From Candidatus Enterousia sp. (lineage in GTDB: Bacteria > Pseudomonadota > Alphaproteobacteria > Rs-D84), in the NCBI GenBank assembly GCA_045643965.1, contig JAZRGB010000023.1, forward strand, positions 12,137 through 76,136: a stretch of DNA of 64,000 nucleotides, in the 5' to 3' direction. Made by a program: the position numbers and the translations under genes. The notes under the pieces were generated by a model. It searched no databases, was not told where the DNA came from, and was given only the letters and a program-made list of their open reading frames with translations. The first letter of the stretch is position 1. Every line of letters begins with the position of its first letter. Below are positions 13,071-61,076 of this stretch, piece by piece.

Positions 13071-14369
13071 ATGAAAAAGCAATTGTCTGTTATCGTTGGT
13101 GCATTGGCAATTTTGGCCACATCAAATGCGTATTCTGAAACAAATTGGGGCACACGTTCTGGTTCCAGTGTAAACTTGTCCAGCACGCCATCAACACGCA
13201 CACGCGAAAACATAAATTACAAAAAATATCAAACAACAAAACGTACATACACAACCAAAGATTCTGGTGACCTGTATTATACAAAACCTGCAAATCGCAG
13301 TGCATTGTACAAAGAATACACAGGTGCAAATTCTTCACGTGCAACAGAAACAAAAACAACAGTACGCAAGGTACGTTCTGAAACAGCACGCACAACAGCA
13401 AAACGCAAATACTTTTTGGCACACCCATTTTTCCAACCATTGGGTGGCAAATTCGGTTCTATAACAGACCTGTCATATACTAACAGTTCATATGATTTCA
13501 CAATGAATCAAACTGTTCCTTTTTATGATAACACAGGCACACCTTTGACACCATCTACAACACCATTATCTGACCTGACAGCCAATTGGACTACAAAGCA
13601 ATTAGTTATCAAAGAAGATTTCAGTTATGGTATCACAGATCGTTTTGCGATTTTGGGAATGCTGCAATATAATTCTTCTGATTACGAAACAGAATATGAC
13701 GATCCAACTGCCCCAAAAGACAAAATGAGTGACAGTGGTCTGAATTTATATGGTCTGGGCGTACAATGGCGTTTTGTTGATAACGACCAATGGATTGCAA
13801 TGGCGTCCGGATATTTCCAACATCAAAAAGACATCGCAAATAACTTTATTCTGGAAGCCAAGGCAGGATATAAAGTACAACGTTCTACAATCTATGGTTT
13901 GGCACGTGGTTGGTATATTGATTTAGAAGGCAATTCTTATGGCAACGCCATTTCTGGCAACGAAGTAAACGGCGATCCTTCTATGATGTATTTACCATAC
14001 CAAGTTGGCGACACCAGTGCAATGTATCTGGAAGGTGGCTTGGGTGTATTCAGTGTCTTAAACCAAGACTGGACATTAAATGTTGAAGCGGTATTGGGCA
14101 ACTATGACTGGCATAACCAGGCATCCGTAAAGGCCGCAATCGCATGGCAACCAAATGATTGGTTTGCACTGAACCTGTACGGTAAAACATCTATTTATGA
14201 TACTGCAAATGATAAAACCCTTGATTTGTATTATCAGAACCCACAAATTAAAATAGATAACGGTGCTGGCGGTCAAATATCTTTGGACAGCCTGTACCCC
14301 GTTGGAACAGCAGACTTGGATAAATATTCAGAAATGACAATCGGTCTGCAAGCAATATTCCAATTCTAA
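13071..14369 (+). CDS. Outer-membrane beta-barrel protein (hypothetical)
   Basis: Signal peptide MKKQLSVIVGALAILATSNAYS, alternating amphipathic beta-strand pattern, and a C-terminal aromatic residue (…IFQF). Confidence 0.55.
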   Translation: MKKQLSVIVGALAILATSNAYSETNWGTRSGSSVNLSSTPSTRTRENINYKKYQTTKRTYTTKDSGDLYYTKPANRSALYKEYTGANSSRATETKTTVRKVRSETARTTAKRKYFLAHPFFQPLGGKFGSITDLSYTNSSYDFTMNQTVPFYDNTGTPLTPSTTPLSDLTANWTTKQLVIKEDFSYGITDRFAILGMLQYNSSDYETEYDDPTAPKDKMSDSGLNLYGLGVQWRFVDNDQWIAMASGYFQHQKDIANNFILEAKAGYKVQRSTIYGLARGWYIDLEGNSYGNAISGNEVNGDPSMMYLPYQVGDTSAMYLEGGLGVFSVLNQDWTLNVEAVLGNYDWHNQASVKAAIAWQPNDWFALNLYGKTSIYDTANDKTLDLYYQNPQIKIDNGAGGQISLDSLYPVGTADLDKYSEMTIGLQAIFQF

Positions 14370-14433: not shown

Positions 14434-15171
14434 ATGCGTAAATTTTTATCCGTATTTTTTGTCAGTGCTTTTATCGCCCTGCCCGTATCATCATATGCAA
14501 ATGTATTGGAACACGATACATCTGATCCACTATATTTACTAAACACCGAAGAATTGTTAAGTCAAACATCTGTATCCTACTGGAATCACATGTTACGTAT
14601 CGGTCAAGGCATATCTTATGGTATGAATCAACGTTTATCAATTGGTGCAAACGTTCATTACCAACACCACTTTAACGGTGACATGGATGGATTTTCTGCT
14701 ATTGATTTGGGGGCAACATATCGTATGACACGTGCAACAGACACAGAATCACGTGTTATATCCGACCTGATATTTGGGTTTAAATTCGGCGGCAGTTCTC
14801 ATGCCCGCACACCATATTATGCAGATTCTACATACTATGCAGGTCTGCGATTTGGACGTCAATGGGCCGGCATGACATTGGCAGCAACAATCAAATCCAG
14901 TTGGGTCTTTGATGATGAACGTGGAATGTCATTTATTGACTTTATACCCGAAGCATATTTCAGAATTGCACCAGATTGGCGTATTGGCGGTGGCTTTACA
15001 ATTCGCAAGGCAACAAACCGTGATCCAGTCACAGGTGACGATTATGACCAAGAATGGCTGAACACAAAACTGGTCCGTCAATTTGGCCGCACACAATACA
15101 TTGGTCATATCGACTATGAATTCGAAAGCGATGAAATTCAATTCGGCGGAAAGTTGAATATTGTATTTTAA
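14434..15171 (+). CDS. Outer-membrane beta-barrel protein (hypothetical, OmpA/OmpW-like size)
   Basis: Signal peptide MRKFLSVFFVSAFIALPVSSYA and C-terminal …LNIVF. Confidence 0.5.
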   Translation: MRKFLSVFFVSAFIALPVSSYANVLEHDTSDPLYLLNTEELLSQTSVSYWNHMLRIGQGISYGMNQRLSIGANVHYQHHFNGDMDGFSAIDLGATYRMTRATDTESRVISDLIFGFKFGGSSHARTPYYADSTYYAGLRFGRQWAGMTLAATIKSSWVFDDERGMSFIDFIPEAYFRIAPDWRIGGGFTIRKATNRDPVTGDDYDQEWLNTKLVRQFGRTQYIGHIDYEFESDEIQFGGKLNIVF

Positions 15172-17550: not shown

Positions 17551-17578
17551 AAAACGCCCGTTTGGGCGTATTTTTATT
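17549..17578. terminator. Bidirectional Rho-independent terminator
   Basis: aaaaaacgcccgtttgggcgtattttt between serS and the convergent hypothetical gene. Confidence 0.7.
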
Positions 17579-18146
17579 TCTGAAACGATTGTGCTATTTC
17601 AACAAACGGACGTGCAAAACAATTTGCAGATTCGATTGCTAATTTACTTTTATATTTCTTTGCATTTTCAACAATTTCTTTTGAATATGTATCGCTGTGT
17701 CCATCATACATCCATTGTTGTACAGCACGACAGAAACGATAATATTCTGCACCATTACCATTAAAGAATACACTTGTTGCTTTGTTCCAAACAATACCTG
17801 TTGGATCTTGGACAATATAATAAGCAGAAGAAAAATCTCTTAACCCCTTTGCATCTGCATATTCCACCGCACGTTTACGCCATGCTGCTTCTGTTGTTTC
17901 ACGTGAAAAATACAAATCTGGATTTTTTGCAACCTGTTCCATAAACACCAAACTGCGTGCTGCATCACAACGCTTTTGCAAATCCATATTTTTCCAAATT
18001 GATTTAATACGTACACGTGCCAAATCTGTTAAACTTTTCAGTCCAACTTTTATTGCTTCACGAACTTCTTGTTCTTTATAAGTCTTATACATAATCCCAA
18101 CTCCTTTGGTTATTATTACATCACCGTCACAATTAAATATAGACAA
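17574..18146 (-). CDS. Hypothetical protein
   Basis: 190-aa ORF with coding-like codon usage and no recognisable motifs. The start may be MYKTYKEQ at 18092. Confidence 0.45.
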   Translation of the reverse strand: MSIFNCDGDVIITKGVGIMYKTYKEQEVREAIKVGLKSLTDLARVRIKSIWKNMDLQKRCDAARSLVFMEQVAKNPDLYFSRETTEAAWRKRAVEYADAKGLRDFSSAYYIVQDPTGIVWNKATSVFFNGNGAEYYRFCRAVQQWMYDGHSDTYSKEIVENAKKYKSKLAIESANCFARPFVEIAQSFQK

Positions 18147-18256: not shown

Positions 18257-20089
18257 ATGAAAATACGCAATATTGCAATTATTGCACACGTTGACCATGG
18301 AAAAACAACCTTGGTTGATAATATGTTAAAGCAAGCAGGCACATTTCGTGAAAACGAAAAAGTCGAAGACCGTGTTATGGACAGCGGTGATATTGAACGC
18401 GAACGCGGCATTACTATTTCTGCAAAACCCACATCTATTCAGTGGGGCGAATACAAGATTAATATTGTTGACACACCTGGGCACGCAGACTTTGGTGGCG
18501 AAGTAGAACGAATCCTGTCGATGGTTGACGGTGTGGTATTATTGGTTGACAGTGCCGAAGGTCCACTGCCCCAAACAAAGTTCGTATTATCCAAGGCATT
18601 AAAACTGGGCCTGCGTCCAATTGTATGTATTAACAAGGTTGACCGTGGCGACGCACGACCAGATGAAGTTTTAACAGAAACATTTGATCTGTTCGACAAA
18701 CTGGGTGCAACAGATTCACAACTTGATTTCCCATATTTATATTCTGTTGGTCGTGATGGTTGGGCTGTTCGTGATTTGAACGACGAACGCAAAGATTTGA
18801 CACCATTGTTCCAATTAATTGTTGATCATGTACCTGCCCCAGACTGTAACGGCGAACGTTGTCAGTTGGACGCACCATTTACAATGTTGGCAACAACATT
18901 AGAAGCAGATCCATACGTCGGTCGAATTTTAACAGGTAAAATTGAATCAGGTACAGTTCGCGTTGGTCAATCTGTCAAAGCAATCAACCGAAACGGCGAA
19001 TTTATCGAAAACGCCAAGATTACAAAAATCATTGAACATCGCGGTGTTGAAAAAATCTCACGCGACACTGCATCTGCTGGTGACATTGTTGTTGTGGCTG
19101 GTTTTTCCAAGGCAACTGTGGCAGACACACTGTGCGATCCATCTGTTACCGAACCAATTCCTGCGATGCCGATTGATCCGCCAACCCTGACAATGACATT
19201 CTTTGTTAACACATCACCATTGGCGGGTAAGTCTGGTAAAAAATTAACATCACGCATGATTGGCGAACGCCTGTTCAAAGAAGCAGAAACAAACATTGCG
19301 TTAAAAGTTGAACAAAGTGAAAACAACGAAGCATTCGAAGTATCTGGTCGTGGTGAATTACAACTGGGCATTTTAATTGAAACAATGCGTCGCGAAGGTT
19401 TTGAATTATCAGTATCACGTCCACGCGTTGTTATGATTGAAAATGAAAATGGCGAAAAACTGGAACCAATCGAAGACGTTGTAATTGACGTTGATGACGA
19501 ATTCAGCGGTGTTGTTATTGAAAAAATGACAAAACGCAAGGCAACAATCACCGAAATGAAGGCATCAGGCGGCGGCAAAACACGTATTGTATTTTCTGCC
19601 CCGTCACGTGGTTTGATTGGATACTTGTCAGAATTCCGAACAGACACACGTGGCACAGGTATTATGAACCGTGTATTTGATAAATACGATGTGTATCGTG
19701 GTCCAATACAACAATATCGCCCAGGTGTATTGGTATCTATGGAAAAAGGCAGTGCTGCAACATATGCATTATTTAATTTGCAACCACGTGGCACACTGTT
19801 TATCGACCCACAAACCGAAGTATATTCTGGTATGATTATCGGCGAACACAGCAAAGAAAACGACTTGGAAGTTAATCCAATCAAGGGTAAAGAATTAACA
19901 AACATGCGTTCCGTTACAGCGGATGAAAAATTATTCTTGGCTCCTCCTCGTCGCATATCACTGGAAGAAGCACTGTCATATATCTTGGATGATGAATTGG
20001 TTGAAATCACACCTGACACAATTCGTCTGCGTAAAAAAGAATTAGACAGCAACACACGTAAAAAATTAAAGAAACATATCGAAGAATAA
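18257..20089 (+). CDS. typA: Translational GTPase TypA/BipA
   Basis: NIAIIAHVDHGKTTLVD, DTPGHADF, NKVD GTPase motifs and an EF-G-like domain arrangement, 610 aa. Confidence 0.92.
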   Translation: MKIRNIAIIAHVDHGKTTLVDNMLKQAGTFRENEKVEDRVMDSGDIERERGITISAKPTSIQWGEYKINIVDTPGHADFGGEVERILSMVDGVVLLVDSAEGPLPQTKFVLSKALKLGLRPIVCINKVDRGDARPDEVLTETFDLFDKLGATDSQLDFPYLYSVGRDGWAVRDLNDERKDLTPLFQLIVDHVPAPDCNGERCQLDAPFTMLATTLEADPYVGRILTGKIESGTVRVGQSVKAINRNGEFIENAKITKIIEHRGVEKISRDTASAGDIVVVAGFSKATVADTLCDPSVTEPIPAMPIDPPTLTMTFFVNTSPLAGKSGKKLTSRMIGERLFKEAETNIALKVEQSENNEAFEVSGRGELQLGILIETMRREGFELSVSRPRVVMIENENGEKLEPIEDVVIDVDDEFSGVVIEKMTKRKATITEMKASGGGKTRIVFSAPSRGLIGYLSEFRTDTRGTGIMNRVFDKYDVYRGPIQQYRPGVLVSMEKGSAATYALFNLQPRGTLFIDPQTEVYSGMIIGEHSKENDLEVNPIKGKELTNMRSVTADEKLFLAPPRRISLEEALSYILDDELVEITPDTIRLRKKELDSNTRKKLKKHIEE

Positions 20090-20117
20090 AAAATCCGCCA
20101 AACGGCGGATTTTTTTA
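20089..20117. terminator. Bidirectional Rho-independent terminator
   Basis: aaaaatccgccaaacggcggattttttt between typA and the convergent Cys-rich protein gene. Confidence 0.75.
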
Positions 20118-20128
20118 AATCATTTTAT

Positions 20129-21943
20129 TTATTGGATTCCAACTGTAAACTCATCGCCCCAACCTGCAACAGGTTGACCACCAATTGTACATTTCAAATC
20201 TTCAAAACCATCTTCGACCTGATGTTTTTTCATAACACTGCTGGTAATCAAACCACCGGCTGTACCTAATACAACAGCAGCAATCGAATCCGATGCCAGA
20301 CGTGCTGTATTAAATTTACCATCTTTGTCTTTCCAAACACTTACCTTCATTCCACCAACAATCGCATCCAAAACACCACTTGCTGCAGTAATTGCAGAAC
20401 GAGATTTTTCATTTTCTGAAACAACAACCGTTACATTTTGACAATATTTTTCAACAGACATTTCTACCCTTGTTGATATTTTATTATATTGTTCAGCAGT
20501 TGCATTTGGATCGTTACATAAATTTTCAAATTCTTGTATCAGTTGTAAAACAAAAGAATTATCTTTGCATACTTCTTTATACAAACCGATAGACGCCAAA
20601 TCAACAGCATCACATCTGAACGTTGTTATAGGAATAACTCCATCTTCTTCACCACCTGATTCAGGAATTATACATACTCCCCTACCTTCACGAATCGCAA
20701 ACTTTTTATTTTCACCAACACAATTACAATTTTTTCCATCCCATGTTGCGACAGATGTTCGCAAATCACAACACGCTTTGCCTTCTGGTGTTGAACGCGA
20801 TTCTTTACAACTTTTTTTATTTGGATCTGGTTCTGGTTTAACAGTCTGTCCATGTAAAGCATAGCAAACATTATTTGTTATATAATACGTTGCACCCGAT
20901 AAAACAGTTGCTTCAGAACTTGGCACATAAATATCTTTATCACCGAATGTTGTAACTAATTTTCTTCCTGTCAATGATGCACATGGGCTAAGTGCAGATG
21001 TACCATAATCTTCCCATACATTTCCACCATCCGAAGAACATCTGTATATTTTTGGATCTGTAATCGTTTTATTTGCCAAAACATGTGTTCCGGTCAGCAA
21101 AACCACTGTACCGTTATTACATGCTTTTTGCGTAACCCCACCACAAATCAAGGCCTGACGTGTTGATTCATGACCAACAGTTGGGAACAAATATTCATTA
21201 GAAATTTTAAACGATAGTGTTGGCATATCTTGCACTTCACACATATATCGTGTACCTACAATATTCGTCTTGGCAACACATGTATTATTTGCTTGATCCA
21301 GAACATAACCATCATTACATTCTTTAACCTTGCAGACCAATTTATCAATTGATTCACAATGCAATGTAAAACGCAATGCGTTCTTTGCAGTTAACTCTGT
21401 TGCTCGTTTACAAGCATCTTCAAACAATGTCTCTGGATAATCTTCACCAACAGCTAAATATTTTTTTACAGGATCTTTATTACCATTTAATTTAGGCACA
21501 GTACATCCCGCCTCAACAAACCTTGGAGTTCCTCTTTCATAAATACATTTATAAGTTGCTGATTTATTAATTTTTTTTCCTCTAAAATAATGCCCTGCAG
21601 ACAATGTTACAAACGGTTCAGACTCCCCTGTACAACTGGCACTACCGCACTGATACGCACCCTGTGACATATTTAAAAAAGAAACTTGATTAGTAGGCTT
21701 ATAATTTCTTTTTACAGATTCAGGTGCAGCTGCAAGTGCCGCTTCAATATCTGCCTGTGAAGCTACAGTATATCCACTTCTATTACTTGCTTTATTCCAA
21801 TCAGCATCACTTATAAACAAATATTTATCGCTACCTGGGGTATCCTTGACAGACAAATAAGCACCCTGGCCACACGTTGCAAACGCACCAGTACTGGCAA
21901 AACATACACACACCAACAACATTAATTTCAAAGTATTTTTCAT
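20129..21943 (-). CDS. Large cysteine-rich secreted/surface protein (hypothetical; EGF-like Cys spacing, C-terminal TM anchor)
   Basis: Signal peptide MKNTLKLMLLVCVCFASTGAFA, about 35 Cys in CxC/CxxxC clusters (e.g. CKVKECNDGYVLDQANNTC), and a hydrophobic C-terminal segment IAAVVLGTAGGLITSSVM. Confidence 0.6.
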   Translation of the reverse strand: MKNTLKLMLLVCVCFASTGAFATCGQGAYLSVKDTPGSDKYLFISDADWNKASNRSGYTVASQADIEAALAAAPESVKRNYKPTNQVSFLNMSQGAYQCGSASCTGESEPFVTLSAGHYFRGKKINKSATYKCIYERGTPRFVEAGCTVPKLNGNKDPVKKYLAVGEDYPETLFEDACKRATELTAKNALRFTLHCESIDKLVCKVKECNDGYVLDQANNTCVAKTNIVGTRYMCEVQDMPTLSFKISNEYLFPTVGHESTRQALICGGVTQKACNNGTVVLLTGTHVLANKTITDPKIYRCSSDGGNVWEDYGTSALSPCASLTGRKLVTTFGDKDIYVPSSEATVLSGATYYITNNVCYALHGQTVKPEPDPNKKSCKESRSTPEGKACCDLRTSVATWDGKNCNCVGENKKFAIREGRGVCIIPESGGEEDGVIPITTFRCDAVDLASIGLYKEVCKDNSFVLQLIQEFENLCNDPNATAEQYNKISTRVEMSVEKYCQNVTVVVSENEKSRSAITAASGVLDAIVGGMKVSVWKDKDGKFNTARLASDSIAAVVLGTAGGLITSSVMKKHQVEDGFEDLKCTIGGQPVAGWGDEFTVGIQ

Positions 21944-22013
21944 ATTCCCTTCCTATTTATTCTATCCCTTTTATTTTATCATATTTTCATTATCCTTCCA
22001 AGAGATAAAAACA

Positions 22014-22044
22014 TAAAAAAATCCGCCATTTGGCGGTTCTTTTA
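22014..22044 (-). terminator. Rho-independent terminator downstream of dnaA
   Basis: ccgccatttggcgg hairpin with flanking A/T tracts, just 3' of the dnaA stop. Confidence 0.65.
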
Positions 22045-23319
22045 TTTATATTCTGAAATCATTTGTTGAATCTGGGCAGATAATACCAAATCACTGGCCA
22101 AGTGTTTTTCGATTTGTTTAATTGCATATAATACTGTTGCATGATCACGACCACCAACAAAATTACCAATTTCTGACAATGACAAGCCTGTTACATTTTT
22201 CAATACAACCATCATAATCTGACGTGCCAATACCAATGAACGACTGCGACCATTACCACATACAGCATCATATGATACAGCCAATTTTTCACACATTTCA
22301 CGAACCATCGCACTTGGTGTTTTTGTTTTTTGCAATGTATCTGCCAACAAGCGTTGTGCAATATCCATATCAACATTTGCACCCATCAAATCTGCATATG
22401 TTTTGATTTTTGTTGCAATACCAGCAACCAAGTGACCATCATTTGCAGTACGTTGTGACAATGCACTTGCAACATCCATTGCAACACCCGCACGTTGTAA
22501 CATAACTGTTTTTACATGTGCATTTGGTGCAGCAATATCAGCAGTCAAACCAGACGCAAACAAAGATTGAACACCGCGTTCAAAACCAGTCAAATTATTT
22601 GGTGCTGCATTTGCAGTCAAAACAACGTTTTTACCAGCATTACGCAAATCTACAACCAATTGTACAAATTCTTCGGTTGTTGCTTTTTTACCAGACAATG
22701 TTTGAACATCATCCAAAATAAATGTATCACAGTTACGGCAGAAATCTTTGAAAGCAAAAATATTATGTTCCTTTAAAGAACGTGTAAATTCAGATACAAA
22801 TTGTGCACCACTCATTTTTACAACGCGACCCTGTGATGCACCTGCGATGCAATCTGTTAACAATGTTTTACCACAACCAGATGCACCATAAATAAACAGC
22901 GGGGAAAAAGAAACTGCACCCGCTGCCACTTTTTTACATGCAGATACGACGAACAAATTTTCATCACTGCATACAAAAGAATCAAAAGAAACGTTTGTTG
23001 TTGCAGCAACCTTGGCAGGTGTGAAAACCTGAGTCTGATTGTCATTTGCAACTGTTGTTGCTTTTTGTGCAACGCCACAAACAACAATTTTAACATCCAA
23101 ACCAAATTCATTTGCAACAGACTTGATAACATTTGCATGCACACTGCTAATAAAATCAGCAGAAAATTGATTTTGTGCACCCAATACCAATGTATTACCT
23201 ACAACATCAAATTGTAATGGTAAAATCCAGGATTTATAACTTGCAGAATCGATTTTTGCGGCAATCCCCCCCTTGATATTTTCGATATTTATCATTGATG
23301 GTTTTGCCAGTGTCTGCAT
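22042..23319 (-). CDS. dnaA: Chromosomal replication initiator protein DnaA
   Basis: AAA+ motifs (PLFIYGASGCGKTLL), sensor and box motifs, and a C-terminal DNA-binding helix-turn-helix. Start chosen at MQTLAKPSM with a strong SD (aggag) 8 nt upstream; the ORF track extends 15 codons further. Confidence 0.92.
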   Translation of the reverse strand: MQTLAKPSMINIENIKGGIAAKIDSASYKSWILPLQFDVVGNTLVLGAQNQFSADFISSVHANVIKSVANEFGLDVKIVVCGVAQKATTVANDNQTQVFTPAKVAATTNVSFDSFVCSDENLFVVSACKKVAAGAVSFSPLFIYGASGCGKTLLTDCIAGASQGRVVKMSGAQFVSEFTRSLKEHNIFAFKDFCRNCDTFILDDVQTLSGKKATTEEFVQLVVDLRNAGKNVVLTANAAPNNLTGFERGVQSLFASGLTADIAAPNAHVKTVMLQRAGVAMDVASALSQRTANDGHLVAGIATKIKTYADLMGANVDMDIAQRLLADTLQKTKTPSAMVREMCEKLAVSYDAVCGNGRSRSLVLARQIMMVVLKNVTGLSLSEIGNFVGGRDHATVLYAIKQIEKHLASDLVLSAQIQQMISEYK

Positions 23320-23447
23320 ATTATTTTCTCCTTTCCTTCCCTTAAAAGAGTGTCCCGTTTCCAAAGCATTTTCGAAACACCATATAATTAAAAATGACGT
23401 CCTGTTTTTTCAGTACGAATTGATAAAAAAATCAACCGTACTTATAT

Positions 23448-24786: not shown

Positions 24787-25614
24787 CTATATAGCCAAAT
24801 CAAAGATTCCTTTGTATCGGTCACAAATATCTTTTACTTCTACATCTGTTGTACCGACCCAAATTTCTTTACTGCATTCCGCCTTCAGGGTCTTTAACTG
24901 TGAAACAAATCTGTTGTATTCCGATGCATTTTCATTTTTTAAAACAGCCAACTGTGAACGTAACAACTGTTCACCTTCCAGTGCTTTTTGTCCCATAACC
25001 TTACCACCAATGGCCTTGTTACCAAACAATTCCATTGCACCGACACCCAATGCAGCACCACCAACAGACGCCCCAACGGTACCTAAAACACGATTCTTTT
25101 TCTTGGCATCCAAAATTCTTTGACGCATATCATCTGCATTTACCCAAGAAGCACATGTAATTCCCTTACCCATTTCAAAGTATTTTCCAGCAACATCAGA
25201 AACATCAATTCTGCTGTCATCTGACGACAATTCAACCTTTACAAAACAAGTATTATTTTCTGGTTCCATTGTATCTTCAACCATCCCAGAATAATTATTT
25301 AAATTACTATAACGAGACGCCCAAACAAAAGTATTTCCAATACCTATATTATTAGACAAACAAGCATTACGTTCTTTTTCACGCAAATCTTTATTTGCGG
25401 GTTGCATTGTATTTGGCGTAACAGCCAACGAATCTGAAACCGTTACTGTTTTATTATTAGCCGCAGCCATCGCAGAAATTTGATTTTTTGATACAGTTGC
25501 ACGTGGTGCAGCATCCATCTGATTAGACATAGACACACGACCACGTCCCGCAGGTACAGCCCCCGCAGAACAAACAGCCATACAACCAATAAATAAAGTC
25601 AGAATTTTTTTCAT
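24787..25614 (-). CDS. Hypothetical secreted protein
   Basis: ORF 24787..25635. The likely start is MKKILTLFIGCMAVCSAGA (signal peptide). No recognisable domain. Confidence 0.5.
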   Translation of the reverse strand: MKKILTLFIGCMAVCSAGAVPAGRGRVSMSNQMDAAPRATVSKNQISAMAAANNKTVTVSDSLAVTPNTMQPANKDLREKERNACLSNNIGIGNTFVWASRYSNLNNYSGMVEDTMEPENNTCFVKVELSSDDSRIDVSDVAGKYFEMGKGITCASWVNADDMRQRILDAKKKNRVLGTVGASVGGAALGVGAMELFGNKAIGGKVMGQKALEGEQLLRSQLAVLKNENASEYNRFVSQLKTLKAECSKEIWVGTTDVEVKDICDRYKGIFDLAI

Positions 25615-25687
25615 ACTCTCTTTCCCTACTAGCATACATTTATATATATTATATCACAAAATCGATAAAAAATAAAGACTTTATAAT

Positions 25688-26679: not shown

Positions 26680-26721
26680 AGTTCCTTGCAAATTTTTAAC
26701 AAAACGTGTAAATTATATGGT

Positions 26722-27570
26722 ATGAAAACAAAACGTTTATTTCTGTTTGCAGGCTATCATCCAAAAAACATTGTTGATGATGCACTGACCTATTACGTAA
26801 AATCATTATCCAAATTTGGTGATGTTGTTCTGTGTATGGACTGCGATTGTCCAACATCAGAAACAAACAAACTAAAGAAATACACACTGCACACAATCGC
26901 CACGCGTCATGGTGAATATGATTTTGGTTCATACAAACGTGCGTATTTATGGGCGTATGAAAATTTAAAACTGACCGATTATGATTTTGTATATCTGGTA
27001 AACGATTCTGTTTATGGCCCAATGTACCCATTGGAACGATATTTTGATGCAATGGAAAATATGGGACATGATGCATTTGGTCTGGTTACCAAAAATCGTA
27101 CATCACATCCCCATATACAATCTTGGTTTATCGGTACAAAACCTGACATTTTCTTATCCGATTGGTTTGACAGTTTTATGCGTAATATCAAAAAGTTGGC
27201 CAACAAAGGTCAAATAACTTCTCAATATGAAAACGGATTTTCAAAATTGGTTCTTGAACACGGTTCCACATGGGATTGTTTATATTCTGTATTCAATCGT
27301 GGCGTATATAACAAGGTAAAAAAACTATATAAATCAGGCATGCCGTTTATGAAAAAGGTTGCATTTACCCGCAATCATGGTGGACTGGGACGTCAGGTTT
27401 TATACGTATTGAATCACGTTGATAAGAATCTGTCGGATGCAATTTTATCATCTGCAAAGCAGCAATATGGCGAAAAACAAGTTAAATGGTTACTGACCAA
27501 GAACCCGATAAAAACCGCATTCCGAAATATCCGACATATATTATGTAAAGTATTTATAGAGGGAATATGA
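26722..27570 (+). CDS. Polysaccharide biosynthesis protein, rhamnan-synthesis-F (RgpF)-like glycosyltransferase
   Basis: ORF 26686..27570. Start chosen at MKTKRLFLFAGYHPKN (26722). An EYDFGSYK motif and the overall pattern are reminiscent of the RgpF family. The assignment is tentative. Confidence 0.45.
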   Translation: MKTKRLFLFAGYHPKNIVDDALTYYVKSLSKFGDVVLCMDCDCPTSETNKLKKYTLHTIATRHGEYDFGSYKRAYLWAYENLKLTDYDFVYLVNDSVYGPMYPLERYFDAMENMGHDAFGLVTKNRTSHPHIQSWFIGTKPDIFLSDWFDSFMRNIKKLANKGQITSQYENGFSKLVLEHGSTWDCLYSVFNRGVYNKVKKLYKSGMPFMKKVAFTRNHGGLGRQVLYVLNHVDKNLSDAILSSAKQQYGEKQVKWLLTKNPIKTAFRNIRHILCKVFIEGI

Positions 27571-28415
27571 TAAAAAACAACCAAAAACTTAAACGCGTTG
27601 CAGTTATAACAATGGCCAGAAATGATGAATTTTTTCTGACCCGTTGGATTAAATATTATGGCGAACAATTTGGTTCAGAAAATCTGTATATCTATTTGGA
27701 TGGACTGGATAATAACACACCAGAAAATTCGGACAATGCACATATAACCAAACTGCCCCACCATGACATGTCACGAAGTGATGGCGACAAATATCGCATT
27801 GGTCTGATATCTGATTTAGCGAACAAATTATTAAAAGAATACGACATTGTTATTGGTTGCGACTGTGATGAATTTTTGGTTGTTGACCCAAATACAAATA
27901 TGACATTACACAAATATTTATCTCAGAAAAAATTCAACACCACATTGTCTGGAATTGGACTGGATGTTGGTCAGCATATGAAACACGAAAAAACACTGAA
28001 TAAATCAAAACCATTTTTATCCCAGCGTGCGTTTGCATTATTATCTACACGATACACAAAACCAGTCGTTATAAATCGTCCTGTACGTTGGGGTTCTGGC
28101 TTTCACCGCATAAAGAATCACAACTTTCATATCGACAAGAATTTATACCTGTTACACTTTGGTGCTGTTGATATGAAAATGCTGGAAACCAAGGCTGCCG
28201 CACGCGGCACAGACTGGTTAAATCATCTGCGTCGTCGCGGGAACGGAACAATTAACGATGTAACAAATCGCCCTGCCCGTGGTGAATTCTGGATAAAACT
28301 AGCACGCAAAATTCAGACTTACATTCGTGCACCATACGCAATTAATAAACCAAATATGCTGGGATTAAAAATTGTTGTAAAAATCCCAGAACGCTTAAAA
28401 AAATCAGGCGTTTAA
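27567..28415 (+). CDS. GT-A fold glycosyltransferase (family-2/92-like; DxD motif CDCDEF)
   Basis: N-terminal VAVITMARNDEFFL and DxD (GCDCDEF). It overlaps the upstream gene by 4 nt, indicating operonic arrangement. Confidence 0.45.
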   Translation: MIKNNQKLKRVAVITMARNDEFFLTRWIKYYGEQFGSENLYIYLDGLDNNTPENSDNAHITKLPHHDMSRSDGDKYRIGLISDLANKLLKEYDIVIGCDCDEFLVVDPNTNMTLHKYLSQKKFNTTLSGIGLDVGQHMKHEKTLNKSKPFLSQRAFALLSTRYTKPVVINRPVRWGSGFHRIKNHNFHIDKNLYLLHFGAVDMKMLETKAAARGTDWLNHLRRRGNGTINDVTNRPARGEFWIKLARKIQTYIRAPYAINKPNMLGLKIVVKIPERLKKSGV

Positions 28416-28444
28416 AAAATCCCTTTTCAGGGATTTTTTATTTT
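28414..28444. terminator. Bidirectional Rho-independent terminator
   Basis: aaaaaatcccttttcagggattttttatttt between convergent glycosyltransferase genes. Confidence 0.75.
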
Positions 28445-29448
28445 ATAAACTCTTCTATTCTGCCTTTATATTTCTTTGCACGCCCATTACAAGACACATC
28501 ACACACACCGGATTTATATAATTCGTCCACAGATTTTCGTGCAACATTAATATCTTTTTCTTCTGATAACCCCCGCACCTTTTGCATCATAGTAATTACA
28601 AAAGGCCACAAGAATTCACGATTAAAATGCTTAAATTCCCCAGCAATCGCTTTTTCTTTATATAAATTATATGAATAAATCAAACCGTGCACCAATGACT
28701 TAATCATAAATAAATCCTTGGCAGAATTTAAAGACGAAGTCGCATTTGGCATATAAAAATACAATGGCAACCGTAACATAACGGTCTTTGGCCGTGCCAA
28801 TAATATCGATACCCACCAAGGAAAATCTTCGATAATAATTCCACGTATAAATGGTGTTTTTTTAACCAAATCTGCACGATACAACGCCAACACAGGATAA
28901 CAATGTTTTCTGGTTGGACGTTTTACATGCCATGTTCTATTTTTTTCTGTTGCATGAAAAATAACATTTTTCAAAGAATATATGCGTTCATTTCCATATT
29001 TCTTATTTTTATTTTCCGGCAAAACATCTGTAATATCGACCCCTTGTAACATTTTTTTTCGCAGTCTATTATGAAATTTTACATCATGATCAAACATCAC
29101 CATATCTGCATTTTTTTGTTTTGCAGCATTATATGTTAATTCCAGTGTTTGCAAATGAATAAAATCATCACTGTCCAAAAACAATATATAATCACCAGTC
29201 GCATGTTGTACACCAATATTTCTGGCATCAGATTGTCCACCATTTTCTTTATGTATTACAACAAAGCGTTTATCACGTTTTGCATATTCGTCGGCGATTT
29301 CACCAGATTTATCTGGACTGCCATCATCGACACAAATCGCCTGCCAGTCTGTAAAAGTCTGATTTAATACACAATCCAAACATCTTCGCAGATATTTTTC
29401 AACATTATATATTGGTATAATTATTGAAATCTTTGGATTTTTTTTCAT
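28438..29448 (-). CDS. Glycosyltransferase family 2 (paralog A)
   Basis: ISIIIPIYNVEKYLRRCLDCVLNQTFTDWQAICVDDGSPDKSGEIADEYAKRDKRFVVIHKENGGQSDARN, the GT2 GT-A signature. Its N-terminal 100 aa are nearly identical to the adjacent paralog. Confidence 0.85.
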   Translation of the reverse strand: MKKNPKISIIIPIYNVEKYLRRCLDCVLNQTFTDWQAICVDDGSPDKSGEIADEYAKRDKRFVVIHKENGGQSDARNIGVQHATGDYILFLDSDDFIHLQTLELTYNAAKQKNADMVMFDHDVKFHNRLRKKMLQGVDITDVLPENKNKKYGNERIYSLKNVIFHATEKNRTWHVKRPTRKHCYPVLALYRADLVKKTPFIRGIIIEDFPWWVSILLARPKTVMLRLPLYFYMPNATSSLNSAKDLFMIKSLVHGLIYSYNLYKEKAIAGEFKHFNREFLWPFVITMMQKVRGLSEEKDINVARKSVDELYKSGVCDVSCNGRAKKYKGRIEEFIK

Positions 29449-29453
29449 ATTTA

Positions 29454-30467
29454 TTATCCTATGAAATTCACTATATCATCACGCAATTGTTCTGCCCATT
29501 TATATGGTGGATTTGATAACGCACCGATTTTATGCATTTCTATAAAGCATTGACGTGCATCGGCTAACTCTTCATCAGAACGTATATATTTTAACTTACG
29601 AAACGCCCACTTAATAAAGAACCATTTAAAGTTCTTGTTCCATTGTTCCATTTGATAATCTGTGGAATTTTCTTTATATGCAGAATACGCATCAATTATA
29701 CCTGTGCACAAACTTTTCATTATACGCAACTGTTTTGCACTTAATACAATTCCACCAAAATTTGGAATATAAAAATACAATGGTAACGGTGCAATTGTAA
29801 CACGCGGATTGCGTAACATAACCCTGCTCCACCATGGGAAATCTTCGAATAAAATCCCCTTGATAAAAGGAATATCTGCAATCAATTCACGTTTATACAA
29901 ATTTTTCCAAACCTGACAATGTTTTATCAACCAATGACGTTTTGGATTAAATTTATTGTGCGTACGTTCTGTTGCATATTCATAAACATCATCTGTTACA
30001 CGTGTTTTAATTTTATTCAGATTATATCTTTTATGAATCGCACGTGGCACAACATTATCCGTATCCAACCCCAGTTTATGACGCACCATTAATTGCGGGC
30101 GATATATTCTATCATATGTAAAAGATACAATATCAGACCCGTCACGCAACGCCAATGAATACGCAATTTCTAATGTTTGTGGGTGAATAAAATCATCACT
30201 GTCTATATACAAAATATAATCACCGGTTGCATGCGGCATACCAGCATTACGTGCATCGGACAAACCACCGTTTTCTTTATGAATAACCACAAAACGTTTA
30301 TCTCGTTTTGCATATTCTTCGGCGATTTCACCAGATTTATCTGGACTGCCATCATCGACACATATCGCCTGCCAATCTGTAAAAGTCTGATTTAATACAC
30401 TATCCAAGCATCTCCTCAGATATTTTTCAACACCATACATTGGAATAATTATTGAAATTGCAGGCAT
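29454..30467 (-). CDS. Glycosyltransferase family 2 (paralog B)
   Basis: ISIIIPMYGVEKYLRRCLDSVLNQTFTDWQAICVDDGSPDKSGEIAEEYAKRDKRFVVIHKENGGLSDARN, with a diverged C-terminal half. Confidence 0.85.
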   Translation of the reverse strand: MPAISIIIPMYGVEKYLRRCLDSVLNQTFTDWQAICVDDGSPDKSGEIAEEYAKRDKRFVVIHKENGGLSDARNAGMPHATGDYILYIDSDDFIHPQTLEIAYSLALRDGSDIVSFTYDRIYRPQLMVRHKLGLDTDNVVPRAIHKRYNLNKIKTRVTDDVYEYATERTHNKFNPKRHWLIKHCQVWKNLYKRELIADIPFIKGILFEDFPWWSRVMLRNPRVTIAPLPLYFYIPNFGGIVLSAKQLRIMKSLCTGIIDAYSAYKENSTDYQMEQWNKNFKWFFIKWAFRKLKYIRSDEELADARQCFIEMHKIGALSNPPYKWAEQLRDDIVNFIG

Positions 30468-30482
30468 ATATCATCTCCGTTT

Positions 30483-31391
30483 TTATTTATACATATTAAT
30501 TATTGTTTCTGCAAAAGTATCTTTTTTAGGTTTTTCAGAACCACGATATGTCAATTTTTGAAAGAACGAACCACTTGTCACCTTATCAAAAGTTTCTTGA
30601 TTGAATGGTTTATCATGATACGCCCACCATAACATGTGCGTTGGGTCCTGATCAACATGTGGCATTTTTTCAAAATACTTTTTTGCACGTTCATCATTTA
30701 AAACCAATGTCTTAAATAACAACTGGTGCATAAAATAATCAAAATTTGAATTTTCATGTTTCCAATATTCCAAAATCATTGCACGCCATGCTGCCAACAA
30801 ATACGCCCCTTTGCGTGCACGAATAAAGCAATTTTGCATAAACGAATAAGGACTGCCAACATTTTGACCTGCCATATAAACAAAAAAGTCTTCATTTTCA
30901 ATCCAACTTGGGATTTCACTGGTTGCCAGCCCTGTTGAATCCAGCCAATACCCACCATGTTGATATAACAATTCAACACGACAAATATCTGCAAAGTGTG
31001 CATGTGCAATCTTACCGGCACGACGTTTTTCCATAACATAATCAGGCAATGTTATATAATCAAAAACCGTCTTTTCATCCAATACTATCAATTCTTGTTT
31101 ACAATTTCTGCGAACACTGCGAAAACAAGCCTGAACCAATGGTGGAGCTTTATCTTCACCCTGTAACCACAATGTAAAGATTTTATCATTTTTATCGTTA
31201 TTTGTAACCTTGGTTTCTTTTACAGAAGCAACTGCAGGTAAATATCTTTTAAAATATTTTGGAATAACCTTGGAAATAACATCACTTCGAACAATACGTC
31301 TGTGTACACGCGAACGCCATGGCCAATTTAAAATATGACCACGCACCATAATTTCTGTCATTGCAACAAATCTTGCCAAGTTCATACACAT
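30483..31391 (-). CDS. Glycosyltransferase, DXD sugar-binding family (capsule-synthesis/OCH1-like)
   Basis: Motifs IFTLWLQGEDKAPPLVQACFRSVRRN ... DIVRVELLYQHGGYWLDSTG are typical of the Gly_transf_sug / Caps_synth families. The start is uncertain. Confidence 0.55.
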   Translation of the reverse strand: MCMNLARFVAMTEIMVRGHILNWPWRSRVHRRIVRSDVISKVIPKYFKRYLPAVASVKETKVTNNDKNDKIFTLWLQGEDKAPPLVQACFRSVRRNCKQELIVLDEKTVFDYITLPDYVMEKRRAGKIAHAHFADICRVELLYQHGGYWLDSTGLATSEIPSWIENEDFFVYMAGQNVGSPYSFMQNCFIRARKGAYLLAAWRAMILEYWKHENSNFDYFMHQLLFKTLVLNDERAKKYFEKMPHVDQDPTHMLWWAYHDKPFNQETFDKVTSGSFFQKLTYRGSEKPKKDTFAETIINMYK

Positions 31392-59026: not shown

Positions 59027-61018
59027 TTACTCCAACAATAACAAATCATCTTCCAGACCATGAATTTGGTCGCGAATTTCTGCAGCCAATTCAAATTCCA
59101 AGTCTTCGGCAGCCTGATGCATTTTCTTGGTTAACTTTTTTATTTCTGCCCTGACAGATTCTGCATCCATAACCCCGCCAGATTTATCATAAACAAATTT
59201 TCGTGACTTGTCAGTTTTTTCTTGTCTTTCACCAACTTCTGAAAACACGGCCTTGGTCACAGTTTTTGGCACGATACCATGTTCTGCATTAAAGTCCATT
59301 TGGATTTTACGTCTGCGTGCTGTTTCATCCAGCGCACTTTGCATAGATTCTGTAATTTTATCAGCGTATAAGATAACACGTCCATTTGCATTTCGTGCAG
59401 CACGCCCAATCGTTTGAATTAAAGAACGCGTAGAACGCAAAAAGCCTTCTTTGTCCGCATCCATAATTGCAACCATTTCACATTCTGGCACATCCAAACC
59501 TTCGCGTAACAGGTTTATACCAACCAGAACATCAAATTTACCCAAACGCAATTCACGCAACAGTTCGATACGTTCCAACGTTTCTATATCGCTGTGCAGA
59601 TATTTTGCACGCACACCATTTTCATTTAAATAATCTGTTAATTGTTCTGCCATTTTCTTGGTAAGCGTTGTTACCAAAACACGTCCAGAAACATTTTTAA
59701 CAGCATCCAGCAAATCATCAACCTGATGTGTTGTTGGTCGCACTTCACATACCGGATCCAGCAATCCTGTTGGTCGAATAACCTGTTCTGACACAATTCC
59801 ACCCGACTGATTCAATTCCCATTCTGCAGGTGTTGCAGATACAAAAATAGTCTGGGGGCGTAAATTATCCCACTCATCAAACGTCAATGGTCTGTTATCA
59901 ATACACGCTGGCAATCTGAATCCATATTGTGACAAGGTTTCTTTTCTGGCACGGTCACCACGACTCATTGCACCGATTTGCGGAACAGTCACATGACTTT
60001 CATCAATAAACAACACTGCATCTTTTGGCAAATATTCAAACAATGTTGGTGGTGGCTGACCCGGCAAACGCCCAGATAAATATCTTGAATAATTTTCCAC
60101 GCCACGACACGTACCGGTACTTTCCATCATTTCAATATCAAAGTTTACACGTTCACGCAGTCTTTGTTCTTCTATATACTTCATATTTTGATGAAAGTAT
60201 TCTAATCTTTCTGCTAAATCTTTTCTGATTTGTGTAATCGCCTGTAAAACACTGGGCATCGGTGTAGCATAGTGTGTATTTGGATAAACCGCAATTCTAT
60301 TTAACTTTTGCAGTTTTGCCCCTGTTAAAGTATCAAATTCCCATATTTCTTCGACTTCATCGCCCCAAAAACAAACCTTCCAGCCACGATCAACCGCATG
60401 CGATGGGAAAATATCCAGCGTATCACCACGCACACGAAATTCACCACGTGCGGGTGCCATATCATTTCTTTTATATTGTATATCAACCAACGAACGAACA
60501 ACATCAGCAATTGACACAACGTCACCAACATTTACAACCAATCGCATTCCTGCATATTGTTCTGGCGACCCCATACCGTATATAGATGATACACTGGACA
60601 CAACAACGACGTCACGTTCTTCCAACATTGCACGCGTTGCACTGTGACGCATACGGTCCAATTGTTCATTAATTGATGCGTCTTTATCAATATATGTATC
60701 TGTTGTTGGCATATACGCTTCTGGTTGATAATAGTCATAATAAGAAACGAAATATTCGACATGATTTCTTGGGAAAAAAGATTTCATCTCTGTATATAAC
60801 TGTGCCGCCAAAATCTTGTTCGGTGCCATAATTAATGCAGGACGCCCCAGTTCTGCAATAACATTTGCCATTGTAAATGTTTTTCCAGACCCAGTTACAC
60901 CCAACAAAACCTGAGATTGCCTACCTTCATTTACCCCCGACACCAGTTCAGCAATGGCGGTCGGCTGATCACCCATAGGTTTATAGTCACTTTCAAGATA
61001 AAATTCTGCTTTTTTCAT
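59027..61018 (-). CDS. uvrB: Excinuclease ABC subunit B
   Basis: GVTGSGKTFTMANVI Walker A, helicase motifs, beta-hairpin, and a C-terminal UVR domain (AAEDLEFELAAEIRDQI). 663 aa. Confidence 0.95.
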   Translation of the reverse strand: MKKAEFYLESDYKPMGDQPTAIAELVSGVNEGRQSQVLLGVTGSGKTFTMANVIAELGRPALIMAPNKILAAQLYTEMKSFFPRNHVEYFVSYYDYYQPEAYMPTTDTYIDKDASINEQLDRMRHSATRAMLEERDVVVVSSVSSIYGMGSPEQYAGMRLVVNVGDVVSIADVVRSLVDIQYKRNDMAPARGEFRVRGDTLDIFPSHAVDRGWKVCFWGDEVEEIWEFDTLTGAKLQKLNRIAVYPNTHYATPMPSVLQAITQIRKDLAERLEYFHQNMKYIEEQRLRERVNFDIEMMESTGTCRGVENYSRYLSGRLPGQPPPTLFEYLPKDAVLFIDESHVTVPQIGAMSRGDRARKETLSQYGFRLPACIDNRPLTFDEWDNLRPQTIFVSATPAEWELNQSGGIVSEQVIRPTGLLDPVCEVRPTTHQVDDLLDAVKNVSGRVLVTTLTKKMAEQLTDYLNENGVRAKYLHSDIETLERIELLRELRLGKFDVLVGINLLREGLDVPECEMVAIMDADKEGFLRSTRSLIQTIGRAARNANGRVILYADKITESMQSALDETARRRKIQMDFNAEHGIVPKTVTKAVFSEVGERQEKTDKSRKFVYDKSGGVMDAESVRAEIKKLTKKMHQAAEDLEFELAAEIRDQIHGLEDDLLLLE

Positions 61019-61076
61019 TTTTTTATTAACAATCTTAAATATAATCCATTATAATCAAATTACAAGGAAAGAGAGA

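Follow-up and report, generated by a model that had tools for sequence, protein, structure and literature searches.

The variant-specific surface proteins (VSPs) of Giardia are eukaryotic proteins with about 12% cysteine, many CXXC motifs and the tail CRGKA, encoded by hundreds of paralogues with switching expression. In chlamydiae, OmcB and OmcA belong to a cross-linked outer-membrane complex and are not known to have a C-terminal helix anchor. GxxxGxxxG motifs underlie tight helix-helix packing and oligomerisation in membrane proteins, and the concept of the glycine zipper in membrane helices reportedly goes back to Kim et al. 2005. Here we describe a protein that shares features with each of these systems, encoded directly downstream of dnaA in a stretch of 64,000 nucleotides (64 kb) from Candidatus Enterousia sp. 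(assembly GCA_045643965.1, contig JAZRGB010000023.1), hereafter the window. It is predicted to be exported, and combines a C-terminal module kept in every member of its family, here called the anchor, with a cysteine-rich ectodomain of variable content.

The order Rs-D84, with Candidatus Enterousia, is uncultured and widespread in human and animal guts, and its members are presumed to live off other cells. Enterousia, placed in Rs-D84 by the Genome Taxonomy Database (GTDB), has genomes under about 1 Mb that lack the tricarboxylic acid cycle, the respiratory chain and biosynthetic pathways for amino acids, nucleotides and lipids; an obligate symbiotic or parasitic lifestyle has been proposed for it, with "hypothetical membrane-bound proteins" suggested as mediators of cell interaction (PMC12306168). 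In termite-gut work, Rs-D84 figures among the small-genome lineages that need not be endosymbionts of flagellates (PMC11257099). The window itself encodes functions of a diderm envelope (LptF/G, a LolCDE-like set, an AsmA-like protein, SecB, SecDF and MltA).

The protein is built in the order signal peptide, module A, module C, a second module A, spacer, module B, module D, anchor. Its parts, as delimited by sequence comparison and by AlphaFold2 (AF2) models with their predicted local distance difference test (pLDDT) scores, are the following:
20129..21943, minus strand: coding sequence of the family protein, 604 amino acids plus stop, complete (open reading frame (ORF) list; near-identical copy P0001; orthologous position in 47 genomes)
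21878..21943, minus strand: signal peptide, residues 1-22, MKNTLKLMLLVCVCFASTGAFA followed by TCG, with a predicted signal peptidase I site between AFA and TC (hydropathy and the -3/-1 rule)
21503..21838, minus strand: module A, copy 1, residues 36-147, with an insertion and four cysteines (jackhmmer domain E=3.1e-13; pLDDT mixed, 42-86); motif (D/N)E(F/Y)L(F/Y)...C..C..G..V....GH.F.G.....Y.C.....W.....C
21278..21502, minus strand: module C, residues 148-222, ending in CKVKECNDGYVLDQANNTC (jackhmmer; 17/90 members)
20849..21241, minus strand: all-beta domain including module A copy 2, residues 235-365, SNEYLFPT... (jackhmmer E=1.4e-23)
20810..20848, minus strand: Pro/Lys-rich spacer, residues 366-378, TVKPEPDPNKKS (alignment; AF2 confidence low)
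20672..20809, minus strand: module B, residues 379-424, six cysteines, C..R....G.ACC......W....C.C.........G.C (66/90 members; pLDDT 83-91)
20441..20614, minus strand: module D, residues 444-501, three-helix bundle with four cysteines at the helix ends (40/90 members; pLDDT 85-97)
20348..20416, minus strand: membrane-proximal stalk helix, residues 510-532 (column entropies over 90 members; AF2 helix 510-531)
20132..20335, minus strand: anchor core, residues 537-604 (24 positions invariant in 90/90 members)

The initial annotation, made from the letters of the window, had the gene essentially right except in the cysteine count. The ORF of 604 residues is present on the minus strand with dnaA immediately upstream on the same strand, its N-terminus MKNTLKLMLLVCVCFASTGAFA resembles a signal peptidase I substrate in its charged, hydrophobic and small-x-small parts, a single hydrophobic helix followed by a short tail lies at the C-terminus, and the two cysteine motifs that had been quoted are found at residues 204-222 and 391-424. 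The cysteines number 29 and not about 35: the signal peptide has two (C12 and C14), the mature ectodomain 26 and the tail one (C585). This corresponds to 4.8% cysteine against a mean of 1.2% (standard deviation 0.9) over 52 genes of the window, four standard deviations above it, and the enrichment claimed for a disulfide-dense protein is therefore real. A lipoprotein was rejected by inspection, as no lipobox precedes any N-terminal cysteine.

Three small folds of the ectodomain are modelled with confidence. Residues 235-365 consist of strands throughout, with pLDDT mostly 75-90 (10-residue block means 65-90), and are kept in alignments with the close orthologues P0002 to P0005; residues 379-424 are modelled as one helix and four strands, and residues 444-501 as helices 446-458, 463-477 and 483-500. 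A Foldseek comparison of the AF2 model with PDB and BFVD returned nothing at E<=1e-3, and a sequence profile search of PDB gave no match. The Pro/Lys-rich spacer is longer in orthologues, for example KPEPKPEPKPKPKKK.

The anchor core opens with the motif W537-K-x-x-x-G542-x-FN-T-A-RL-A-SD552 (WK..G.FNTARLASD), continues into the segment SIAAVVLGTAGGLITSSVM (residues 553-571, nucleotides 20231-20287), which is the sole hydrophobic stretch besides the signal peptide, and closes with a tail of 33 residues (nucleotides 20132-20230) made of KK572-573 and 31 further residues, GFED..C585..GGQ.VA.WGDEF.VG(I/V)Q. Invariant in 90/90 members are W537, G542, F544, N545, R548, L549, S551, D552, A555, V557, V558 and L559, and likewise G560, K572, K573, G579, F580, C585, G588, Q590, A593, D597, F599 and G602; the window protein has all 24 of them and an anchor domain match of E=2e-45. 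For 118 of 123 representatives the distance between the FN motif and the C-terminus is exactly 61 residues. Within the helix, whose conservation extends to all faces and not to one, lies a glycine zipper, [GA]556xxxG560xxx[GA]564, with position 556 occupied by G in 63 members or A in 27, position 560 by G in 90/90, and position 564 by G in 74 or A in 16. The stalk in front of it is conserved over the 90 members only at I518, A521, L525, I528 and F/L532, a 3-4-3-4 spacing of the kind seen in coiled-coil heptads. AF2 models this part as a stalk helix and, after a turn, a long kinked helix that leads into a beta-hairpin, equally in the full-length model and in a model of the anchor only (P0040 and 119 relatives), the latter with a pLDDT of 59.6 that is too uncertain for a fold search. 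The glycine-zipper families of Pfam (Gly-zipper_Omp, Gly-zipper_YMGG, Rick_17kDa_Anti) gave no match to the anchor even at E<=1.

Residues 585-590 of the tail (20174-20191) read C-T-[IV]-G-G-Q, with C585, G588 and Q590 among the invariant positions, and the GGQ is reminiscent of the release-factor motif, probably by coincidence. An autotransporter was considered and rejected, since the module measures about 70-90 residues and is predicted as helix-helix-beta-hairpin, against a barrel of at least about 250 residues, and no Pfam autotransporter family matches.

A direct homologue search returned five relatives only, one of which (P0006) has just the last ~90 residues in common with the window protein, and a search with the C-terminal piece returned 128 proteins. 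A HMMER profile scan of 1.84 billion cluster representatives (50% identity) gave 952 matches, of which 935 reach E<=1e-10 and 841 reach E<=1e-30; in the top 150 listed, the matching segment nearly always closes the protein. The boundary of the family is therefore sharp. A genome scan with one genome per species confirmed 111 matches, of which 79 loci were kept, all titled Candidatus Enterousia, (uncultured) Alphaproteobacteria, Pseudomonadota/proteobacterium or "uncultured Rickettsiales" metagenome-assembled genomes (MAGs), with named sources that are overwhelmingly animal or human gut samples. The family appears to be confined to small-genome gut bacteria, Candidatus Enterousia and its relatives in the order Rs-D84. 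Two of the loci, L036 (JAFGMC010000010.1, isolate Zod_Metabat.441) and L078 (Rickettsiales bacterium Cc175_bin31), have the family gene and its linkage to dnaA under isolate names that are not obviously of vertebrate gut, so that both clade and family may extend beyond this habitat.

Relatives carry the name "hypothetical protein" only, and no description of the family was found in the papers searched. Pfam (E<=0.01 for 32 relatives, E<=0.001 for 100) and NCBIfam (E<=1 for the window protein, E<=0.01 for the 32) scans of the protein and its relatives gave nothing relevant for the cysteine-rich units or the anchor. The family, its anchor and its modules appear to be undescribed. Weak matches to DUF5874 (Pfam) were seen in 5/100 family representatives, the best at E=1.3e-5.

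From the 79 loci, 89 non-redundant ORFs with the anchor at the C-terminus were taken, and 84 of them start with a signal-peptide-like sequence. The 83 complete ORFs with a signal peptide range from 260 to 782 residues (median 470) and hold 4 to 46 cysteines (median 25, or 5.2%). According to jackhmmer searches within the family, module A, of about 65-110 residues with the pattern (D/N)E(F/Y)LY ... ECD..C..G..V....GH.F.G....Y.C....W, occurs in 42/90 members in up to three copies, module B in one to three copies, and module C is recognised in the family by its end pattern LVCKA.EC..GY....G.C. Modules A to D are combined in more than 20 different orders and in varying copy numbers, and the anchor closes every one of the proteins (90/90). 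Linkers of the type (P/T)n are present in other members. P0249 joins the same anchor to an OmpA-family domain (34.3 bits, above the Pfam cut-off; matches to PA0833-PD, YfiB and OmpA in PDB), the same domain falls just under the threshold in P0223, and P0206 carries a CarboxypepD_reg-like domain and a weak OmpA-like domain on the anchor; such members are rare, about 3/145 representatives. Collagen-like G-x-x runs (GPAGPAGRDGKDGKDGKDGRDG...) or long (GGN)n tracts were observed in some ectodomains, as in L047:2488-4308, L004:8987-10756 and L006:9458-11218.

Conservation falls steeply away from the anchor. Among the 89 members, matches to the window protein cover residues 505-604 in 89/89, residues 380-505 in about 40-54 and the first 360 residues in 7-21. 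In 47 genomes dnaA is followed immediately, on its own strand, by a family gene, and when these pairs are compared with the window, the mean identity is 68.7% (58-90) for DnaA, 78.4% (66-91) for the last 68 residues of the family protein and 18.9% (10-26, global alignment) for its ectodomain. The anchor is under stronger constraint than DnaA, and the distal parts turn over extremely fast. In L004, the nearest genome with a different allele, DnaA is 90% and TypA 97% identical to those of the window, against 26% for the ectodomain; the distal part of the family protein has been swapped out there and B-D-anchor kept. Between the near-identical strains L081 and L082, 4.5 non-synonymous and 5.5 synonymous changes give a ratio of non-synonymous to synonymous rates (dN/dS) of 0.23, against 0.01-0.12 in five neighbouring genes, substitutions too few to say more than that the gene is not a pseudogene and is under no obvious positive selection at that scale.

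Some genomes have two or three family copies, and one to three or more were seen overall. Additional copies are found at a few other junctions of housekeeping genes, beside a GyrB/ParE-like gene and dnaJ or after mutL, and in the regions around the family genes no accessory or partner gene recurs beside them, the recurrent neighbours being housekeeping genes only. In L066, L067 and L068 (URSJ01, CAKQTG01, CAKQSE01), three family genes within about 10-20 kb flank the plsY-dprA-dnaA block, some in tandem, which suggests local duplication.

A bias towards even numbers of cysteines in exported proteins is reported to be a classical mark, in genomes, of disulfide formation (Dutton et al. 2008). Counted after the predicted cleavage site and before the anchor, the ectodomain cysteines come to an even number in 78/86 locus ORFs and 112/123 independent metagenome representatives; these counts are not independent, since the modules, which carry 4, 6 and 4 cysteines, are homologous. 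Among the odd cases, several go back to a cleavage call that is visibly wrong or to a truncated ORF. The even count implies that the ectodomain cysteines are paired in disulfides. Past the helix, after the FN motif, exactly one cysteine is present in 86/86 locus ORFs and 122/123 representatives. This lone tail cysteine, C585, fits both a free thiol on the cytoplasmic side and, if the tail shares the side of the ectodomain, an intermolecular disulfide. Oxidative folding, if this is what the signature reflects, in an anaerobe without a respiratory chain is a puzzle that can be tested.

The initial annotation had seen a possibly eukaryote-like protein with EGF-like cysteine spacing that would fit host interaction in an intracellular bacterium, and had named EGF, TNFR and furin-like repeats and horizontal acquisition as points to check; in full, this would be a horizontally acquired, eukaryote-like host-interaction effector. 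A reduced genome would suit such a bacterium, and the sequence C-x4-C-x2-GY-x9-C at residues 204-222 is suggestive; the end of module C, CKVKECNDGYVLDQANNTC, is the sole stretch with a faint likeness to cEGF, CPL1 or DUF4215. All Pfam scores of the window protein stay far below threshold (cEGF E=0.21, 11.9 bits for a cut-off of 26.6 and over residues 208-223 only; CPL1-like E=0.028; DUF4215 E=0.29), TNFR and furin-like repeats gave no match to it at E<=1, and none of the EGF, TNFR or furin-like families, or of the three faint ones, is among the matches in the 132 relatives scanned. Neither sequence nor fold has a counterpart in PDB, nor the fold one among the viral models of BFVD. Base composition (GC 0.369 for the gene, 0.378 for the window mean) and codon-usage distance are native, the gene order is conserved across the order, the locus is ancestral to it, no relative was found outside this one bacterial clade, and an intracellular lifestyle has not been established for Rs-D84 (PMC12306168, PMC11257099). 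We therefore consider this identity very improbable. As to its parts, no known repeat domain was recognised, and the protein is not a conserved housekeeping one either, only its anchor being conserved. A role in contact with another cell or a host stays plausible, because the ectodomain evolves very fast.

We lean, on balance, towards a Sec-exported, modular envelope protein of Rs-D84, a membrane-anchored and oligomerising scaffold that would display variable binding modules, and the structural part of this reading is much more secure than the functional part. The signal peptide would be cleaved off, and the 26 ectodomain cysteines could form 13 disulfides in an oxidising envelope and so stabilise the string of small modules A - C - A - spacer - B - D. 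The C-terminal module would hold the protein in the membrane by means of its heptad stalk, glycine-zipper helix, KK pair and a beta-hairpin tail of 30 residues with the lone cysteine; in the default topology the helix would sit in the inner membrane, with the ectodomain in the periplasm and the tail in the cytoplasm. Because the stalk has heptad spacing and the helix GxxxGxxxG, the anchor may associate with itself or with the anchors of paralogues. It would then be a common and strongly constrained "foot", and the "heads" mounted on it would be shuffled, replaced and fast-diverging, possibly in binding changing external ligands on a partner cell or host surface, or under pressure from phages or immunity. 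The family is order-wide, occupies a fixed locus in each genome examined, and joins two extremes of these genomes, an anchor among their most conserved sequences and heads among their least conserved ones; this makes it the obvious candidate for a contact apparatus or a lineage-specific envelope structure. A further-reaching version, in which the anchor is an oligomerising glycine-zipper display device, possibly with a sorting route of its own, and the heads form a disulfide-stabilised surface coat for attaching to or exploiting partner or host cells, we regard as unlikely.

Several observations weigh against the anchored display of binding modules. The helix is only marginally hydrophobic, with a best 19-residue Kyte-Doolittle mean of 1.66 and a position-independent sum on the Hessa scale of +2.8 kcal/mol (family median +4.1), and on its own it may be no stop-transfer sequence; the Lys and Arg counts on its flanks show no clear preference for a cytoplasmic tail. 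The type-I topology of the initial annotation, which the signal peptide and the one hydrophobic segment support, is for this reason a reasonable prediction and not a certain one. AF2 confidence in the anchor is low (54-77 as 10-residue block means when the full-length protein is modelled, 46-78 for the anchor by itself), the dependence among the parity counts has been mentioned, and the dN/dS between strains indicates purifying and not positive selection. No Dsb gene was seen in the 64-kb window of this lineage without a respiratory chain (PMC12306168), no outer-membrane translocator was found in any family-gene neighbourhood, and a route across the outer membrane is not evident. The OmpA-like paralogues on the same anchor argue, moreover, for an ectodomain in the periplasm and not on the surface. 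They and the default topology given by Sec export and stop-transfer point to the periplasm; fast replacement of the heads, low-complexity spacers and a weakly hydrophobic helix speak for exposure or for a special sorting route.

Part of this evidence would suit a structural tether spanning the periplasm, comparable in principle with TonB, MotB, Pal and OmpA, in which an inner-membrane anchor links to peptidoglycan or the outer membrane and the ectodomain, no adhesin, never leaves the periplasm. Besides the default periplasmic topology, the peptidoglycan-binding type of domain that OmpA-like paralogues mount on the identical anchor and the lack of a translocator, the Pro/Lys-rich spacers are TonB-like, one member has a weak TonB match (NCBIfam), and the dnaA-adjacent copy keeps a fixed locus in 47 genomes. 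An ectodomain down to 19% mean identity while DnaA keeps 69% is, however, unexpected of a housekeeping part, as are the shuffled modules, the length range of 260-782 residues and the collagen-like and GGN inserts, and the OmpA-like members are few; we take the tether to be a doubtful explanation, yet one to be kept in mind. Still less probable, in our judgement, is that the C-terminal module is the sorting or secretion signal of a lineage-specific surface-display pathway, which a dedicated machine would recognise and might cleave or place in the outer membrane, with the heads exposed. Such a signal would explain a module common to proteins with unrelated ectodomains, more conserved than DnaA, at a nearly constant distance from the end and with a helix too weakly hydrophobic for a classical anchor, and fast-evolving heads are expected of exposed proteins. 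PEP-CTERM with exosortase, GlyGly-CTERM with rhombosortase and the C-terminal domain of the type IX secretion system (T9SS) follow an analogous logic, and together with LPXTG they share with the anchor a conserved C-terminal module on otherwise unrelated exported proteins, a hydrophobic helix and then basic residues. These tripartite signals, however, form the extreme C-terminus (the last 25-35 residues), whereas here a conserved tail of 33 residues, KK pair included, comes after the helix, in a module of 70-90. No NCBIfam/TIGRFAM sorting-domain model matched the window protein (E<=1) or 32 members (E<=0.01), and in the regions around the family genes no cognate enzyme of sortase, protease or transporter type is conserved among the neighbours, which are dnaA, typA, GyrB/ParE-like, dnaJ, mutL and greA; the OmpA-like paralogues again favour the periplasm. 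The anchored scaffold with variable heads remains our preferred reading over both.

The surroundings of the gene agree with its own transcription unit, as had been claimed from terminators on both sides:
20087..20117, both strands: bidirectional terminator-like hairpin (20093-20110), A-run, ATCCGCC-GTTT-GGCGGAT and T-run, read from the sequence
21946-21954, minus strand: Shine-Dalgarno sequence AGGAAGGGA, 2 nucleotides ahead of the ATG
21973..22001, minus strand: promoter-like site TTGGAA-17-TAAAAT with TG upstream (consensus scan alone)
22016..22036, minus strand: intrinsic-terminator-like hairpin CCGCCAAATGGCGG and T7 directly after the dnaA stop (hairpin and T7 at 22023-22036)
22042..23364, minus strand: dnaA, directly upstream of the family gene

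The typA/bipA gene is convergent with the family gene, and the hairpin at 20093-20110, which fell outside the criteria of the terminator scan and was found by direct reading, lies between the two. Promoter-like sites in the region are as numerous in the consensus scan as expected by chance; the one at 21973..22001 is a candidate only. The near-identical protein P0001 is carried by two further metagenome contigs, and the contig of P0005, from a Candidatus Enterousia MAG, has the gene order of the window: plsY, a 277-residue hypothetical protein, dprA, dnaA, the family gene, typA and serS. No second family copy was found in the window by tblastn. GC at third codon positions (GC3) is low in the family gene (0.202, against 0.293), and likewise in dnaA (0.229) and in a 190-residue ORF (0.194).

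That ORF (17574-18146, minus strand), placed between serS and typA, matches no family and is present in some related genomes only, for example L011 and L081/L082, in which the call is for 172 residues. dnaA has no dnaN after it in the window, the cumulative GC skew falls steadily over all 64 kb without a turning point, and DnaA boxes (TTATCCACA, at most one mismatch) are at chance level in the window (34 found for 29 expected), near the family gene and dnaA as well; no replication origin is evident beside dnaA in the window. Between plsY and dprA, a 282-residue protein (24787-25635, minus strand) has a signal peptide, conserved cysteines, a Gly-rich hydrophobic helix VLGTVGASVGGAALGVGAMELFG and a coiled-coil-like tail of about 80 residues, has equivalents of 45-74% identity at this position in about 50 Rs-D84 loci, and has no Pfam or NCBIfam match; as a distant relative of the anchor it was rejected (hhalign probability 0.3%). 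Two adjacent ORFs on the plus strand, 13071-14369 (432 residues) and 14434-15171 (245 residues), have zero cysteines and no Pfam match, and at the corresponding position of the Enterousia contig L001 there are ORFs of 416 and 245 residues, also without Pfam matches. Just past plsY lies a polysaccharide synthesis cluster (26686-31391) with an RgpF-like gene, three or four GT2 glycosyltransferases and Caps_synth, whose gene content is slightly different in the near-identical strain contig L081. GC is reduced to about 0.305-0.306 at 61001-63000, a segment that holds a 569-residue ORF with a weak N-terminal match to the AsmA family (28 bits, just below the cut-off).

If the family served only as a periplasmic tether, the gain would be a modest one for annotation, a new domain of unknown function. 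In the preferred reading of an anchored scaffold with variable heads, it offers a concrete lead on how the contact surface may be made in a gut lineage that is uncultured and depends on partners. The anchor profile can be used as a marker of the clade and as a bait for partners.

Among known systems, the OmpA-like envelope proteins OmpA, Pal, YfiB and MotB are approached by the three members that join the anchor to an OmpA-like domain, whereas the window protein has no such domain and the anchor is a C-terminal helix in place of a beta-barrel, a lipid or an N-terminal helix. With glycine-zipper helices it has in common the motif in a Gly/Ser/Thr-rich, weakly hydrophobic helix, which, unlike in the Pfam families of that type, stands here within a larger conserved C-terminal module of large exported proteins. 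Chlamydial OmcB and OmcA are likewise disulfide-dense envelope proteins of a reduced-genome diderm, with no known counterpart in ordinary Gram-negatives; their Pfam families matched neither the window protein nor the scanned relatives. The closest architectural analogue known to us would be the VSPs of Giardia, with which no sequence similarity or homology is known. The Rs-D84 proteins differ from them in about 5% cysteine with no CXXC bias, in one to three or more copies per genome, and in a module of 70-90 residues with a stalk and a 33-residue tail, but resemble them in the signal peptide, the variable cysteine-rich ectodomain and a near-invariant C-terminal segment, predicted here to be transmembrane, that is followed, family-wide, by a short invariant tail.

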